Source of the DNA: an uncultured Planctomycetales bacterium
GTDB taxonomy: Bacteria; Planctomycetota; Planctomycetia; Pirellulales; S012-138
Direction: 5' to 3'
NCBI GenBank assembly: GCA_937927735.1
Contig: CALBRZ010000083.1
Span: forward strand, 544 to 64,543
DNA length: 64,000 bases
The notes under the pieces are model-generated. The model was not told the origin of the DNA, made no database searches, and saw only the letters and a program-made list of their open reading frames with translations. The position numbers and the translations under genes are program-made. This document shows, piece after piece, positions 10,887-35,178 of the stretch (its first letter is position 1; the number at the start of each line of letters is the position of its first letter).

Positions 10887-11996
10887 TCTATCGCTCCTGA
10901 AGATGACGCCCCGAACTCCAAAGTCCTCTTCCTCAGGGCGTCCAGCGGGAAGAGGTTTCCGCCGTACAGGTGGCGGATGGTTTCGTCCGTGCTTGTTCAC
11001 CCAGGCCCGCAGGTCTAGGTGTTTGATGCCCTAACTGGCGGCAGGCAAATGCGAGGCGCGGTTATCAACCCGCAAGAAGCTTTGCTTGCCGAGTGATCGT
11101 ATCAACCGTGTATCCGTACTCCGTGCTTGAGGCACGCGTGGTTGCAAAGCCCAAGGAGTCAGCCAGAAATCGGGGAACACCTGCCAGGTGCACTGCGGCT
11201 CGCCTTCCTCCGCGGCCGGAGCAACCAGCCAAGGCGGGTTCCTCATATCATGCCGGCCGTTCGCCATGGGGGGCCCTGTCTTGCCATGGGGGCGTGTCCC
11301 GGGCCCGGCCGATTTCTGTCTTATTTCAGAGGAGCGTGTTCCTTGTAGGGGGCGGCGATGCGAGCTCGAAGCATGGGGCGTTTCAAGAGAAGGAAGCCGC
11401 CGGCCACGACGACTTCAGATCACTGATCATGACTCCCATGTCTGCGAGTGGTCCGTCCTCCATGCCGCCCAAGGTTATTGACGTTCGCGCGACCGTCGCC
11501 ACCTTGGATTGTGCCACCCGGTTGGCCTGTGGAGAGCTCACCAAAGCGGCGCTTCCGGCGAGGGCTGCGTAGGTATCACTAATAACCTTCGCCCGTTGCG
11601 CCAAATTGAAGCAACTTAACCGCACTTACGTCAAGGCGGATCGGAACATTCTGGTCAAGTTCTACAACTTTTTTTGCTCATGACATGGTTAGAGGCCCTC
11701 ATACCAACCGCTAACGTAGGCGCGGGTCGGTTCAACTGCTGATTTGACAACCGCGCCGCGACCTTCATCGTCGCGCGCTAAACCTCCTTGTGGCGGACGG
11801 CGGGCAGCGTTCCACGTTAAATGCTCCCGTTCGCAAGGTGCGGGGACGCGGCCGCGTGGTGCTGTAGCGCCGGTCAAACGTGTAATGGCCGCGCGACGGT
11901 TGGTAGACTGGTACGCTGTCCGCCGCCGGGGATGGTTGGCTCGTTGGACCTGCCGCGGCGCGGCCTCAAAAAATGTGAGCAGTCGGGTGCCCCACT

Positions 11997-13403
11997 ATGG
12001 CCGTTGATTCCTCGCTGGCGTTTGCTTCGATCCGCACCCTGGGCCGTCATCTCCGCGCCAAGCGGTTCACCTCGCTGGAACTTACCGAGTTCTTTCTCGA
12101 CCGGCTGCGACGTCACGGCCCGCGGCTCAACGCCGTGGTCACACTCACCGAGGATCTTGCCCGAAGCCAGGCCCGGCAGGCCGACGAAGAGCTTGCCCGG
12201 GGGATCGATCGTGGCCCCCTGCACGGCATTCCTTACGGCGCCAAAGACCTGCTATCGACGCCCGGCATTCCGACCAGTTGGGGCGCCGCCCCGCTTCGCG
12301 AGCGCATTCTGGAGGACGAGGCGACCGTGGTCCGCCGCCTCCGCGAGGCCGGCGCGGTGCTGTGCGCCAAGCTGGCCATGGTGGAGATCGCCGGGGGGCT
12401 GGGGTACGACCAGGCCAACGCGTCGTTCACCGGGCCGGGGTTGAATCCCTGGGCCACCGACCGCTGGAGCGGCGGTTCGTCCAGCGGTTCAGGCTCGGCC
12501 GTGGGAGCCGGCCTGGTGCCGATGGCGATTGGCTCAGAAACCTGGGGCTCGATCATGACGCCGGCCGGCTACTGCGGCGTCACCGGGCTGCGTCCGACCT
12601 ATGGCCGTGTCAGCCGCCACGGCGCGATGGCCCTGAGTTGGACCATGGACAAGTTGGGTTGCCTGACCCGGACGGCGGACGACGCCGGGCTGGTTCTGGA
12701 GGCCATCGCGGGGCACGACCCCAACGACCCGACATCGTTGCGCAGCACGTTCACCTACCGGCGTCTCAAGCCGAACCGCCGCTGGAAGCTGGCACGCCTG
12801 GCTGGCGACGTCGAGCGGGTACAGCCTGAGGTCCGGGCTGCCTTTGAAACCTCACTCGAGGTATTGATGGCCGACGCCGACATCGCGCAGGTGAAACTGC
12901 CCGACCTGCCCTATAGCCTGGTGGCGAGCGTCATCATCAATTGTGAAATGGCGGCCGCGTTTGAAGGCCTCATCTCATCCGGCGATATCTGGGAAATGAC
13001 GGCTCCCGAGGATTGTATTGGCGCGCACGCGGCCCAATTGATACCCGCCAAGGACTATATCAATGCCCTGCGCATCCGCCGCAAGATCCAGGTGGCCCTG
13101 GACGAGTTGCTGCAACCTTATGACGCCCTGGTGATGCCCACGCTGGCCACGGTGGCTTCGCCGATCGACCGTGACTTTGCCAGCTATCACCGAGGCTGGG
13201 GGCTGCCCCCCCTGGGAGGCGGCGAGAATGCCGCAGGCATCCCGGCGATCACCGTCCCCAATGGATTCGGGGAATCCCAACTGCCGACCGGTTTGAAGTT
13301 TGTCGGCAGGGCCTTCTCGGAGAACCGGCTGCTGAATCTGGCGCGCGCCTACCAGCAGCGCACCGCGTGGCACGCCGAAGTGCCGCCGGAGTTCAAGGGC
13401 TGA
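11997..13403 (+). CDS. amidase-signature family amidase (GatA-like)
   Basis: Amidase signature GGSSSGSGSAVGAGLVPMAIGSETWGSIMTPAGYCGVTGLRPTYGRVSRHG. Conserved Lys context IPYGAKDL. Confidence 0.9.
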   Translation: MAVDSSLAFASIRTLGRHLRAKRFTSLELTEFFLDRLRRHGPRLNAVVTLTEDLARSQARQADEELARGIDRGPLHGIPYGAKDLLSTPGIPTSWGAAPLRERILEDEATVVRRLREAGAVLCAKLAMVEIAGGLGYDQANASFTGPGLNPWATDRWSGGSSSGSGSAVGAGLVPMAIGSETWGSIMTPAGYCGVTGLRPTYGRVSRHGAMALSWTMDKLGCLTRTADDAGLVLEAIAGHDPNDPTSLRSTFTYRRLKPNRRWKLARLAGDVERVQPEVRAAFETSLEVLMADADIAQVKLPDLPYSLVASVIINCEMAAAFEGLISSGDIWEMTAPEDCIGAHAAQLIPAKDYINALRIRRKIQVALDELLQPYDALVMPTLATVASPIDRDFASYHRGWGLPPLGGGENAAGIPAITVPNGFGESQLPTGLKFVGRAFSENRLLNLARAYQQRTAWHAEVPPEFKG

Positions 13404-32016: not shown

Positions 32017-32484
32017 GCGCTACATTCCTTCAACTACAAAGGCACACCGGCTATGTCCAACAGGCAAACGACCGCCTGCCGGCGTCCGGCGTTCAAATAG
32101 TACCACCGGCCTGAACCACACCGCCCGCACGGCGATCACCACACAGTTTGGAAGGTTGGCCCGGACAGAACCCGGGGCGCAATGCGGACGAGCTTTCGCT
32201 GGGCCGATCAGCGAAAGAGTAGAAATGCTATCAGGTATAGGAGTTACCGTCAATCGGTGTATGGCGGCGGGCGACTGTAGCCCGGAGCCCACCGCTCGGA
32301 AAATTGGCGCTAACCGCTGCGACGTGATCCCCCACACGGCGTGAGGCGGGTCGCCCCTCGTCACGGCCAGAAACATCCATTGCCGTTAATGGATTCGGCA
32401 CGCCCAGCTTGGGCCCGCCGCGACACTGGGGGCGGGGGCAAACGGCTGGGCGGCCGTCCCAGGAAGGGAGGAGCCAGCGGGCGT

Positions 32485-33561
32485 CTAGTTGATCGAAGGC
32501 CGCGGGCCGGCGTCGTCCGTCGGCATGAAGAAGTCCTGGAAGTCGGTCACCGTTTCGGCGGTGCCTTCCATGTCGAATTCGTCGGAGATCAGGTTGCCGA
32601 TGTAGCCCTGCATCAGCCGTCGCCCCTCCTCGGTGGCGTGGTGGGTGGCCACCTCGCTGGCGAAGTTGATCAGGTCGTATACGCGGGCCCGGCTGGGCAG
32701 CACCCGCTGCCGCTTGACGCTCAGCGCGTCGAGATTGGCCAGGCCATAGATCTCGTGCAGGTTGCCGGTCACCCGGTTCAGGTCGCGCAACACCTGTTCG
32801 TGGGCGATACCGCCCCGGCTGTGGGCTTTGGTCAGCGCCTTGTACAGCTCATGGCATTCGTTCACCGATGCCCACGACTGCTGGGCACTAGTGAACCGTT
32901 GCCGCAGGGCCGCATAGCCGTCGCCATTGTCGAAGCTCTCCAGTGCCCGGCTAAGGCTGTGCGTTACATCCTTGCCCAGGCTGATGTCGCTGCGGAACGC
33001 CCGGCTGTAGCCGATAGCGCCGTTGGAACAAATGGTTCGCAGAAACGACAGATAAATCTTGGGCTGGCTGAACCCGTCGATCGGCGTTTCCATCACGAAG
33101 CGGTGCTGGAACGCGTCGCCCGCGATGGTGATCGTCTTGTCACCGGTTCGCGGCACATGGGTGCTGCTCACCACGCCGTCGTGGTAGCCGATGTCGGTGC
33201 CGCCGTAGCGGCTGGCCAGGTCATGGATCTCGCCGTAATTGATGATGGGCCGGTTGGGATTGCTCACGGCCAGCAGCCTCGCGCCGCGGCTGCCGCTCTG
33301 CTCGATGCAGTAACGCACCAGGTCATCCTGGGCCACGTGCGAAATCCGCTCGAACACCTCCAGGGGATCGAAGTACCGGAACACCGTGTCGGAAATGCCA
33401 AACCGCATGAAGAACGACGTCCAGAACCGCTGGGTGGGTGCCACCAGGTGACCGTCGACTTCCATCAGGCGAATGTGCAGCCGGCCGTTGGACGAACGCT
33501 GCTGGTGGATCACTCGAAACTGCTGCACGCGGGCGTAGCCGGTTTGAAACGTGTACTGCAT
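32485..33561 (-). CDS. DUF932-like protein (phage/plasmid-associated family), function unknown
   Basis: Start re-called at MQYTFQTGYARV (ATG at 33561); the listed upstream part of the ORF is Arg/Pro-rich shadow. The core METPIDGFSQPKIYLSFLRTICSNGAIG resembles the DUF932 xSxDGS...RxVCxNG pattern by eye. Confidence 0.65.
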   Translation of the reverse strand: MQYTFQTGYARVQQFRVIHQQRSSNGRLHIRLMEVDGHLVAPTQRFWTSFFMRFGISDTVFRYFDPLEVFERISHVAQDDLVRYCIEQSGSRGARLLAVSNPNRPIINYGEIHDLASRYGGTDIGYHDGVVSSTHVPRTGDKTITIAGDAFQHRFVMETPIDGFSQPKIYLSFLRTICSNGAIGYSRAFRSDISLGKDVTHSLSRALESFDNGDGYAALRQRFTSAQQSWASVNECHELYKALTKAHSRGGIAHEQVLRDLNRVTGNLHEIYGLANLDALSVKRQRVLPSRARVYDLINFASEVATHHATEEGRRLMQGYIGNLISDEFDMEGTAETVTDFQDFFMPTDDAGPRPSIN

Positions 33562-33626
33562 GGCTGAGTCTTCAGGCTTGGGGGAGCGGGAGTTTCTTGG
33601 GGCGACCGGGGCGGTGACGCGCGGCG

Positions 33627-34826
33627 TCAGTCCCAGTCGCGCTGCTGGGTCCAAAAGTCGCGGGTGCGGTGCTGGGCGACGAGCTGCGGAAGTTCGGCCT
33701 GGCTGCGGGCGATGGCCGCGCGGCTGCGCTGGGTAATCGCCGCGATCCGCTGGTTCACCCGGAGGGTACGCCAGGTGCCGTCGAGCCAGATGTACTGCTC
33801 GTCGGCCATCGCCGTCTTGAGGAACGGGTGCCGCGTCTGCTTGCACTGCACGATCTGCTTGAACGGGATCCGGGGATGCTTGCGAAATACGCGGCCGCCC
33901 ATCTGAATGGTGCAACCCTTGCCCGACGGGCGGCAGAACACGGTCTTGAGCGTGGGGCAGTCGAAGCCTTCGGTGAGGATCGCCATGTTCAACAGCACGT
34001 CGATCCGGCCCTCGGCGAAGTCGTCCAGCTGCCGCTGCCGGTCGGTTTGGGCGGTGACCACCTCGGCCCGGATGCCGGCGGCCGTAAGGAGTTCGTGGCA
34101 CTGCTGACACTGCTGGAGCCGGTGGAAGAAGATCAGGGTTTTCCCCCACCGCTGCGGCTCGCGAAGGAAGTGCTCGGCCACGCTCTCGGGCGTGTAACGC
34201 TCAATGGTGTAATGGTGGTACCGGCTGAGGTAGCCATCTTGAATGAGCTGATGGATGCCCGCGTCTTTAATTACCTGGTCGAAGCACAGCTTGATCCGAT
34301 CGGTGCGAAACGGCGTGGCGGTCAGCCCTAGCACGTGCCGTGGCCGGATCACGCTGTGCAGGTTGGCCATGCTCATGGCGGCGTCGTGCTGGGCTTCGTC
34401 GACGACCAGCATGTCGACGGCGGGTGGGTTCTTGTCGAACATGGAGATGAACTCCAGGTCGACGTTGAAACCGCGGGCCTGGTTTTCGGCCTCGGCCTGG
34501 GCCAGCAGGTTCCGCCGCATGGACACCCAGCCGATGCGGTAGCCGTGCTTTTGCTGCATCTGCCGGGCGATGGCCAGGCCCATCACCGTCTTGCCGCTGC
34601 CGGTGGGGCTCTCGACCATGACCGAATGGGCGGCGGGTTCCAGGTCGCCGGCCCGATTGCGGTACTGGCCGTGGAACATCTCCAGGGCCTGATGGATAAT
34701 CCGCAATTGATACGGCCGAGCTTCCACGGCGGCATCGGCCAGCAGCGGGCGGCCTTCCCAATGGCTGGGAGGTTCCGGGACAGCTTGGGCCGCGGGGGCG
34801 TGGTTGACTGCCGGCGTGAGCGTCAT
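33627..34826 (-). CDS. superfamily 2 (DEAD/DEAH, ResIII-like) helicase
   Basis: Start re-called at MTLTPAVNH. Motifs: RPYQ (Q-like), I SPTGSGKT, II VVDEAQH, III LTATP, V LTEGFDCP, VI QMGGRVFR. 399 aa, with no accessory domain visible. Confidence 0.85.
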   Translation of the reverse strand: MTLTPAVNHAPAAQAVPEPPSHWEGRPLLADAAVEARPYQLRIIHQALEMFHGQYRNRAGDLEPAAHSVMVESPTGSGKTVMGLAIARQMQQKHGYRIGWVSMRRNLLAQAEAENQARGFNVDLEFISMFDKNPPAVDMLVVDEAQHDAAMSMANLHSVIRPRHVLGLTATPFRTDRIKLCFDQVIKDAGIHQLIQDGYLSRYHHYTIERYTPESVAEHFLREPQRWGKTLIFFHRLQQCQQCHELLTAAGIRAEVVTAQTDRQRQLDDFAEGRIDVLLNMAILTEGFDCPTLKTVFCRPSGKGCTIQMGGRVFRKHPRIPFKQIVQCKQTRHPFLKTAMADEQYIWLDGTWRTLRVNQRIAAITQRSRAAIARSQAELPQLVAQHRTRDFWTQQRDWD

Positions 34827-35002
34827 GGCAGGCGCACTCCATCCGTGCGGGGAGCGGCAGGCTGGCATTCCGCCTGCCGGGATGCGGCTGCAAGAACGAC
34901 GCTTGAGCGCGGGACGTTTTGCGGCCGACTCGGAATAATCTTTAAAGGGAGGGCGCCGGACCGGCTTGGTGGCCAGGGGCCGGCGCGGTCGCTTTGGGCA
35001 GA

Positions 35003-35027
35003 CTGAACAGCCTGTTCTGGTGTTCAG
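35003..35027. promoter_or_regulatory. nested inverted repeat in a divergent promoter region (candidate operator)
   Basis: CTGAACAGCCTGTTCTGGTGTTCAG. The outer arms are CTGAACA/TGTTCAG and the inner palindrome is GAACAG-c-CTGTTC. It lies between the helicase start (34826, minus) and the membrane-protein start (35179, plus). Confidence 0.3.
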
Positions 35028-35178
35028 TATTGGTGCATTGTTCGCATTTGCCGTTTCCGGGCAAGAGCAGTTGCCGTCCTCGGGGGGCAAAAGAGGCGGT
35101 TGCGGTGACGCGGCGGGGGGAACGAGAAGCCGCCCCGGATATGTGGACGCCGCTTGCGCGCTGATCTACGATGCGGCT

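Follow-up and report, generated by a model that had tools for sequence, protein, structure and literature searches.

The 64,000-nucleotide stretch from an uncultured Planctomycetales bacterium analysed here (hereafter the window) carries, on its minus strand, a gene for a superfamily 2 (SF2) helicase followed by a gene for a partner protein predicted to adopt the DUF932 fold. The two genes show the pattern of a vertically inherited functional operon, not that of genomic-island cargo, and the pair is conserved across orders of Planctomycetia. We read the pair as a domesticated, phage-related and damage-inducible repair or recombination helicase in which the DUF932 protein would act as the DNA-recognition or recruiting subunit, an interpretation that we consider evenly balanced. 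It is built on the intact helicase motifs, the fold of the partner, the strict linkage and co-inheritance of the two genes, purifying selection on both, and a promoter element shared among relatives. The components are of known kinds, and the pair would belong with the accessory-protein-dependent SF2 repair helicases, but the pairing itself is undescribed: a full-text literature search found no functional study of DUF932/TIGR03299 and nothing on a helicase–DUF932 module, in agreement with a first-pass annotation of the window, made from its letters alone, that knew of no named system of this composition.

Composition and inheritance of the helicase–DUF932 pair

Both open reading frames (ORFs) lie where the first-pass annotation had placed them, with the partner 65 nt downstream of the helicase on the same strand. 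The helicase frame extends upstream of its ATG to a TTG at 35090, and conservation among homologues starts only at about residue 25. Pfam searches identify ResIII (8e-14, 52 bits, cut-off 22.5) and Helicase_C (4e-10, 40 bits, cut-off 23.5) and no accessory domain, and the motifs RPYQ, SPTGSGKT, VVDEAQH, LTATP, LTEGFDCP and QMGGRVFR are all present and invariant across 30 homologues, in keeping with the earlier description of a minimal 399-aa SF2 helicase. Homologues of the window helicase are 55-90% identical, and its ratio of nonsynonymous to synonymous substitution rates (dN/dS) against L001, the closest relative among our numbered loci, is 0.12. The AlphaFold2 (AF2) model of the helicase, with a predicted local distance difference test score (pLDDT) of 76, contains two alpha/beta domains, RecA1 and RecA2, which together with motifs I, II, III and VI place the protein in SF2. 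The best fold match in the PDB is RadD (Foldseek E 4e-14), followed by SauUSI, T4 UvsW, Mfd, UvrB, RecQ and XPB-Bax1; by sequence, the helicase matches RadD with an E-value of 5.5e-05. RadD (YejH) shares the RecA1/RecA2 core and the ResIII-type motifs, yet it is 586 aa long, contains a zinc finger and a C-terminal domain absent from the window helicase, is only ~19% identical and has no dedicated adjacent partner gene. The window helicase falls outside the RadD family, given its length of 399 aa, a score of 28 bits against the cut-off of 720 for the NCBIfam RadD equivalog NF053632, and an alignment with RadD that is confined to the helicase core. Its other PADLOC and NCBIfam matches (the PbeA C-terminus, DinG, a type IV restriction enzyme, a dnd restriction enzyme, Mfd and Cas3 P-loops) are likewise to generic cores and all far under the family cut-offs.

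The closest profile of the helicase is PHROG 16 (phrog_16, “DNA helicase”, 1e-47), and tblastn against GenBank phages recovers replication-module helicases at 24-29% identity in 444 phage records. These phage module helicases constitute the closest sequence family, yet they are 560-700 aa long and have Sak4/DUF669 and a primase as partners in place of DUF932, within Sak4-DUF669-helicase-primase-polymerase modules; in a Shinella prophage-like cassette, for example, a related helicase stands in the order Sak4-like ATPase, DUF669, helicase, PD-(D/E)XK and primase. L054-L056, the loci on phages and plasmids whose helicases come closest in similarity, have no DUF932 neighbour and were set aside. 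From its sequence, we predict the helicase to be an intact DNA-type SF2 translocase of a phage-module/RadD-like branch without a recognisable substrate-recognition domain. Beyond motif VI, a conserved C-terminal extension is kept to about residue 385-397 in homologues from both cellular genomes and viral contigs, and residues 301-399 bear a net charge of ~+11, making the extension a candidate docking surface for the partner.

The partner had been called DUF932-like. On Pfam scores alone this assignment falls short: PF06067 (DUF932) matches the window protein with 16.4 bits (E 0.008), under the gathering threshold of 23 bits. The same sub-threshold match occurs in 22 of 30 partner homologues (best E 7e-4), more distant family members score 20-21 bits, a precomputed PF06067 match exists in four family members (marked “faint” for the one re-listed, P0453), and several homologues are named “DUF932 domain-containing” by NCBI. 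Structure prediction lends the assignment further support. The AF2 model of the partner (pLDDT 80.6, predicted template modelling score 0.74) yields 24 Foldseek matches with E <= 1e-3 in BFVD, which are full-length and fall on phage proteins named DUF932/TIGR03299, the top match having an E-value of 4.8e-10 and a probability of 1.0. Moreover, the best-conserved stretch of the family contains an invariant set of residues (T159, P160, D162, G163, R175, C178, N180, G181, G184, Y185, R190 and S191), and hhalign pairs residues 162-183 with residues 108-129 of E. coli YfjQ (DG…FRAVCQNG). The aligned block, DGFSQPKIYLSFLRTICSNGAI in the partner and DGTSSYQMLPGMFRAVCQNGLV in YfjQ, is exactly the one quoted in the first-pass annotation. 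With both the fold and the DG…R-x-x-C-x-NG signature of DUF932 present, the partner is best described as a divergent DUF932 protein, under the Pfam cut-off yet supported by modelled structure and signature.

Canonical DUF932/TIGR03299 proteins, such as E. coli YfjQ and YafZ and those of integrative and conjugative elements (ICEs), plasmids and phages, share with the planctomycete branch the fold and the DG…(F/L)R-x-x-C-x-NG signature. The planctomycete branch differs in being ~85 residues longer than YfjQ (273 aa), chromosomal, vertically inherited and linked to a helicase, whereas YfjQ lies next to a GTPase within a cryptic prophage. Clustered at 50%, the partner family has 598 representatives, of which 346 fall below 1e-30. 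Profile searches of PHROGs, NCBIfam and PADLOC gave no match for the partner, the partner-family profile matched nothing among all PDB sequences, and tblastn found no homologue in 50,697 GenBank phage records or 72,556 PLSDB plasmids. The dN/dS of the partner against L001 is 0.09. An acidic/aromatic motif near its C-terminus is kept in all cellular copies and takes the form EYDLE(G/N/E)…(F/W)xD(W/F) in most copies from viral contigs, L062 and L063 retaining only part of it; with residues 301-350 carrying a net charge of -10, this region may serve as an interaction tail.

The two genes are tightly linked, as the first-pass annotation had suggested should be checked across genomes. A pattern-based scan with two peptide patterns over one genome per GTDB species, in which loci were taken from matching genomes only, gave a census of 53 loci from Pirellulales, Gemmatales and Planctomycetales. 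In 50 of the 53, the helicase gene immediately precedes the partner gene on the same strand; of the other three, two are truncated by contig ends and the third is L045. The spacer between the genes is typically 24-215 nt in relatives. Clustering of the flanking ORFs in the 53 loci shows that the pair alone is conserved, with a single recurrent neighbour, a WYL regulator (9/53). Pairwise distances of helicase and partner are correlated (r = 0.94, Mantel p = 0.001), and neighbour-joining trees of the two proteins are largely congruent, resolve Bremerella, Blastopirellula, Rubripirellula and Gemmataceae as genus-level groups, and follow taxonomy rather than a patchy pattern. Cellular copies of the helicase fall into a single clade that excludes those from viral contigs; for the partner, one viral-contig copy (L057) groups next to a Gemmataceae copy. 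Of the two bacterial loci with a solitary partner, L045 has a 526-aa insertion sequence/transposase-like ORF (11393-12973) just downstream, and in L065, on a 1.2-Mb bacterial contig, the partner stands between a pyrroloquinoline quinone (PQQ)-repeat gene and a Uma2-family gene.

Homologous loci are also found on large contigs classed as viral. Six such loci (L057-L062) were recovered from IMG/VR, on contigs of 147-408 kb, and the pair is complete in five of them (147-388 kb), where the helicases are 44-46% and the partners 37-43% identical. The surrounding genes include ORFans, a NAD-dependent DNA ligase and matches to PHROG 30788, 850 and 7293; in the sixth locus, L061, the partner occurs alone, two genes (~1.1 kb) upstream of a sigma-70-family gene. 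In addition, intein-interrupted helicase homologues adjoin distant DUF932-like genes on contigs of 654 kb and 8 kb (L063:8135-9802 and L066:3829-5937), the intein domains being Hom_end_hint in one and Intein_splicing with HNH_3 in the other. Inteins are typically found in enzymes of DNA replication and repair. The module is common to large phages, and an ancient domestication is the best account of its chromosomal version, in line with the domesticated mobile-element module that the first-pass annotation had offered as one possibility and with the phage-type profile of the helicase; the direction of transfer between phage and host is not provable from these data. The sister copies on viral-classed contigs and the intein-bearing homologues suggest phage-host gene flow in replication and repair functions. 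Two observations on these contigs stand apart. A conserved protein of ~489 aa is encoded near the IMG/VR pairs (L058:1728-3197, L059:1372-2832, L057:4889-6379), with a GHKL-like ExxxNxxD motif by eye and no Pfam or PHROG match, and the 654-kb contig L063 also carries ClpB-like, S-adenosylmethionine (SAM)-synthetase, radical-SAM and tRNA-synthetase-like genes.

A promoter element upstream of the pair in relatives

An unbiased k-mer count over the 400 nt 5' of the helicase in 51 loci revealed enrichment of ACGTGTCA, present in 18 of them. The full element consists of an A/T-rich tract, gTGACCaaACGTGTCAc, about 9-10 nt and cGATAnT; it lies upstream of the helicase in 37 of the 51 loci, always in the orientation of the operon (e.g., L006:4194-4220 and L029:5200-5226), and is nearly unique within the ~1 Mb of locus sequence. 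In these promoters the 17-nt element replaces the -35 region and stands at a fixed distance from the -10.

The same element was recovered outside the pair. At L087:9787-9803, the element with its spacing precedes chromosomal recA (PF00154, 4e-49; gene start ~9909), on a contig that also encodes a 1463-aa PVC-type CxxCH protein and other planctomycete-typical genes. The full architecture further precedes an Exo_endo_phos nuclease gene and other genes in a metagenome scan, which used the exact motif and in which many matches are chance occurrences in GC-rich coding DNA; none of the 80 metagenome loci with the exact motif holds the helicase or the partner. A repressor gene of the LexA_DNA_bind plus Peptidase_S24 type likewise follows the element (L134, L290; L289:9661-9687). 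The L134/L289 prophage that encodes it is embedded in a 1.9-Mb contig (GCA_963852815.1), where a large serine recombinase follows; divergent from the repressor gene runs a module of AAA_24 (Sak4), DUF669, DEAD helicase and Prim-Pol, which places one Sak4-DUF669 cassette in a prophage with the same promoter element. A second copy lies at the prophage edge (L289:16033-16059), upstream of a csrA-like gene. In IMG/VR, 97 of 134 motif occurrences share the spacing to a GATAAT or TATAAT -10; the contigs concerned have a GC content of ~40%, and the element is often present in several copies before small ORFan early genes, with five in L205. Two further occurrences were noted. In L080 the element, at 2891, lies ~250 nt upstream of a small excisionase-like helix-turn-helix (HTH) gene and a DUF4007 protein gene (2.6e-38), and in L052 it precedes, at 1428 on the minus strand, a gene for an extracytoplasmic function (ECF)-like sigma factor.

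In the nine loci noted above, a WYL regulator (HTH_11, WYL, WCX) neighbours the pair or is co-transcribed with it, and L002 has an 81-aa WYL-only gene (start ~8068) behind its own copy of the element. PafBC-type WYL regulators drive DNA-damage regulons via a non-palindromic promoter motif (PMC6789036), and the LexA of planctomycetes reportedly does not act through the E. coli box (PMC3108266). We interpret the element as the marker of a DNA-damage-type regulon to which recA and the pair operon belong, and in this reading phages and prophages have co-opted the element; a LexA-like or a WYL protein is the candidate factor binding it. The likeness to the WYL-regulated, LexA-independent damage regulons of mycobacteria (PafBC/RecA-NDp) and Caulobacter (DriD) lies in an asymmetric element that replaces the -35; in addition, recA has the same element as the operon of the relatives, next to which a WYL regulator is encoded. 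It differs from the PafBC/RecA-NDp case in that the relatives' element is gTGACCaaACGTGTCAc, is absent from the window and may have a LexA-like protein as its factor. The RecA-NDp motif is TGTCRGTG-N8-TAnnnT.

The intergenic region upstream of the window helicase holds an inverted repeat (Table 1) with the sole GAACA-N3-TGTTC site in the window. It is only partly conserved in L001 and may be an operator. Its interpretation as a diverged copy of the family promoter element was considered and rejected as unsupported.

Proposed mechanism and alternative explanations

In the mechanism that we propose, the operon would encode a two-subunit DNA-processing machine. The motor would be a stripped-down SF2 DNA translocase of the RadD/UvsW type without a substrate-recognition domain of its own, and the DUF932-fold partner would supply recognition by binding damaged, single-stranded or branched DNA and would recruit or activate the helicase. 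Contact within the putative complex would probably be made by the acidic/aromatic C-terminal motif of the partner with the basic C-terminal extension of the helicase; RadD is stimulated by the C-terminal tail of SSB, and the proposed dependence of the window helicase on an acidic-tailed partner would be analogous. The module would share its ancestry with phage modules, would have been fixed in the ancestor of Planctomycetia and then inherited vertically, and its nearest relatives outside the cellular clade appear to be those on large IMG/VR contigs classed as viral. In most lineages it would be transcribed from a promoter bearing the 17-nt element also found at chromosomal recA, and since the element is shared with recA, the operon would be induced with the DNA-damage response; the window copy may be regulated in the same way. 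Once induced, the pair would help to remodel stalled forks or recombination intermediates. Archaeal XPB-Bax1 and T4 UvsW/UvsW.1 offer parallels: in both, the gene of a minimal SF2 translocase adjoins one whose product supplies recognition or processing of DNA structures. The sequences are unrelated, however, and the window partner, with its DUF932 fold, shows no detectable similarity to the Bax1-type nuclease or to UvsW.1.

ICEs, plasmids, prophages and phages commonly encode proteins of the “unknown” family DUF932, one branch of which is here tied to a defined enzymatic partner. Purifying selection and the recA-type promoter in most relatives make a role of DUF932 as the recognition or recruiting subunit of a RadD/UvsW-like helicase testable. 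Little has been published on DNA-damage regulation in planctomycetes, for which the promoter element is a candidate handle on the regulon, and it may show how phages of planctomycetes plug into the damage regulon of their hosts. A broader proposal sees in the pair a DNA-damage-response machine not recognised before, present across Planctomycetia and also in large phages, with DUF932 as a subunit that recognises lesions or single-stranded DNA and recruits the helicase; this we regard as possible but doubtful. If it is true, it would provide the first biochemical role for a family spread across ICEs, plasmids and phages, and would expose a planctomycete damage regulon with the promoter element gTGACCaaACGTGTCAc-~9-10 nt-GATAnT, co-opted by a group of phages and prophages.

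Several observations weigh against the interpretation of the pair as a damage-inducible repair helicase. The promoter element is absent from the whole window (no position weight matrix match >= 10 bits) and from L001, and damage regulation is therefore unproven for the window copy. Only one example of a chromosomal recA with the element was recovered, and the “lexA” of L134, considered as a host SOS gene, was rejected as such, being a LexA-like repressor inside a prophage. The element could also be a phage-type promoter and not a host SOS element, being very common in phage early regions of ~40% GC. On the side of the partner, comparison with solved structures gives no significant fold match, and DNA binding by the partner is therefore conjecture. 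Three loci (L045, L061 and L065) have a partner without an adjacent helicase. The correlated trees are evidence of co-inheritance, not proof of physical contact, and since the census is limited by its search patterns, the status of the pair as a core gene set in Planctomycetia is undemonstrated.

The foremost alternative is that the pair serves nucleic-acid housekeeping independently of DNA damage, perhaps to restart replication, to maintain the chromosome or to initiate replication of the plasmid/phage type, with the element as a lineage-specific promoter. Vertical-looking inheritance and strong purifying selection would follow equally from such a role, the window copy lacks the recA-type element and lies among housekeeping genes, and the helicase clade is that of phage replication modules (e.g., Sak4-DUF669-helicase-primase in L056 and L289). 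We nevertheless judge it unlikely, if a serious contender: within ~1 Mb of planctomycete locus sequence, the element hardly occurs away from this operon, the sole chromosomal housekeeping gene recovered with it is recA, a WYL regulator is linked to the pair, and the nearest solved folds of the helicase are repair enzymes, not replicative helicases.

Anti-phage or anti-plasmid defence, with the helicase as sensor and the DUF932 protein as effector in a Hachiman-like arrangement, perhaps switched on by infection through the promoter shared with phage early genes, appears quite unlikely. The first-pass annotation had raised it by analogy with Hachiman, and pairs of a helicase with an uncharacterised protein are indeed common among defence layouts. 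Hachiman (HamA DUF1837 nuclease and HamB helicase) resembles the pair in its layout, one helicase gene plus one gene of unknown function; however, its gene order is opposite, the window partner has no nuclease motifs, and the inheritance of the pair is vertical. Neither window protein matches the HamA/HamB profiles of PADLOC-DB, and in this 2023 version, which covers the defence systems catalogued to then, the partner has no match and the helicase matches generic helicase cores only. WYL regulators often flank defence systems (PMC9122601); the element is repeated many times in early regions of phages and recurs in a prophage immunity region; and, in Variovorax, exposure to phage selected for DUF932 variants (bioRxiv 10.1101/2025.06.20.660599). 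Against these stand a phylogeny congruent with taxonomy instead of the patchy spread and incongruence of island cargo, the lack of any conserved defence neighbour or island context in the 53 loci, where the first-pass annotation had advised checking for a variable defence-island setting, and the recA-type element in most relatives. Nor is any nuclease or toxin domain recognisable in the pair, and large viral contigs themselves carry it beside genes of DNA metabolism.

A related possibility is a recombination module, in which the DUF932 protein would be a single-strand annealing or single-stranded DNA-binding protein, with a Rad52/ERF/LEF-3-like core and an SSB-like acidic tail, working with its cognate helicase in the manner of phage recombination cassettes. 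The sole recurrent structural matches of the partner point in this direction (the Rad52 N-terminal domain, LEF-3, ERF and RPA), yet none is significant (E >= 0.07, probability <= 0.33, template modelling score ~0.1-0.2); the best, to the Rad52 N-terminal domain, has an E-value of 0.16 and a probability of 0.1, and no sequence profile ties the partner to an annealase family. SSB, gp2.5 and gp32 likewise have an acidic/aromatic C-terminal tail, and related phage helicases occur beside Sak4/DUF669 recombination genes. Taken together, we consider this version improbable next to a repair helicase with a recognition subunit.

Finally, passive cargo or a prophage/ICE remnant in this genome is largely refuted: DUF932 proteins and phrog_16 helicases are typical mobile-element genes, but the pair has a dN/dS of ~0.1 and is conserved across orders, the window shows no tRNA, no shift in composition and no convincing flanking direct repeats, its identified neighbours are housekeeping genes with the upstream genes syntenic in L001, and no integrase is seen, the other window ORFs not having been profiled for integrases or transposases.

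Gene layout and surroundings of the pair

The positions of the genes, motifs and regulatory features are collected in Table 1. The spacer between the two genes has no terminator-like site, so that helicase and partner are probably co-transcribed.

Table 1. Features of the helicase–DUF932 pair and of related loci (window positions unless a locus is named)
Feature	Position or loci	Strand	Remarks
SF2 helicase gene	33627..34826	-	399 aa from ATG; from ORF and translation
Walker A / motif I, SPTGSGKT	34587..34610	-	residues 73-80; read from sequence; invariant in 30 homologues
Motif II, DEAQH	34386..34400	-	residues 143-147; read from sequence; invariant in 30 homologues
Motif VI, QMGGRVFR	33882..33905	-	residues 308-315; read from sequence; invariant in 30 homologues
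Helicase C-terminal extension	33630..33854	-	residues ~325-399 (~75 aa after motif VI); beta-hairpin and helix; conserved, basic
Intergenic spacer, 65 nt	33562..33626	-	no terminator-like site
Partner gene, divergent DUF932 fold (predicted)	32485..33561	-	358 aa; downstream of helicase
DUF932 signature block, METPIDGF…LSFLRxxCSNGAIGYSRAFRS	32968..33093	-	residues 157-198; best-conserved stretch of the family
Acidic/aromatic C-terminal motif, SDEFDMEGTAE…DFQDFF	32524..32589	-	family form SDEYDMEGTAE…DFxDFF
Inverted repeat ACTGAACA-N11-TGTTCAGT, core GAACA-N3-TGTTC (candidate operator)	35002..35028	-	~180 nt upstream of helicase ATG, in divergent intergenic region
WYL regulator gene, downstream of pair	L004 (11157-12173), L008, L023, L024, L046, L047		
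WYL regulator gene, upstream of pair	L025, L030, L039		
Phage contigs with the promoter element	L067, L072, L073, L075, L088, L108, L110, L113, L114, L116, L126; L187-L266		

The first-pass annotation had described a native base composition and no mobile-element context. Both descriptions agree with the window as a whole, where GC content is flat (0.60-0.68), no tRNA is found, a search for flanking direct repeats gave only short, imperfect and chance-like ones, and no integrase is seen among the neighbours, although integrases and transposases were not specifically searched for. An Rfam search of 27-38 kb returned no match, and a scan for consensus promoters and terminators gave nothing exceeding chance near the operon. 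Sequence identifies rpsB, tsf, pyrH, frr and purB as neighbours on one flank and a large secretin-like gene on the opposite flank. The rpsB-tsf-pyrH-frr genes lie downstream of the pair on the same strand and start 468 nt away, as had been pointed out; the adjacency is true of the window but is judged incidental because it is not conserved, being missing even in L001, and a meaningful association with rpsB was rejected as peculiar to this genome. L001 is 87-89% identical to the window at the protein level, and four upstream genes are syntenic between the two; downstream of its pair, L001 carries GGDEF and HD-GYP signalling genes and an EEP-family nuclease in place of the rpsB operon. The break in synteny falls exactly at the 3' end of the pair (window 32017-32484 versus L001:11075-17000).

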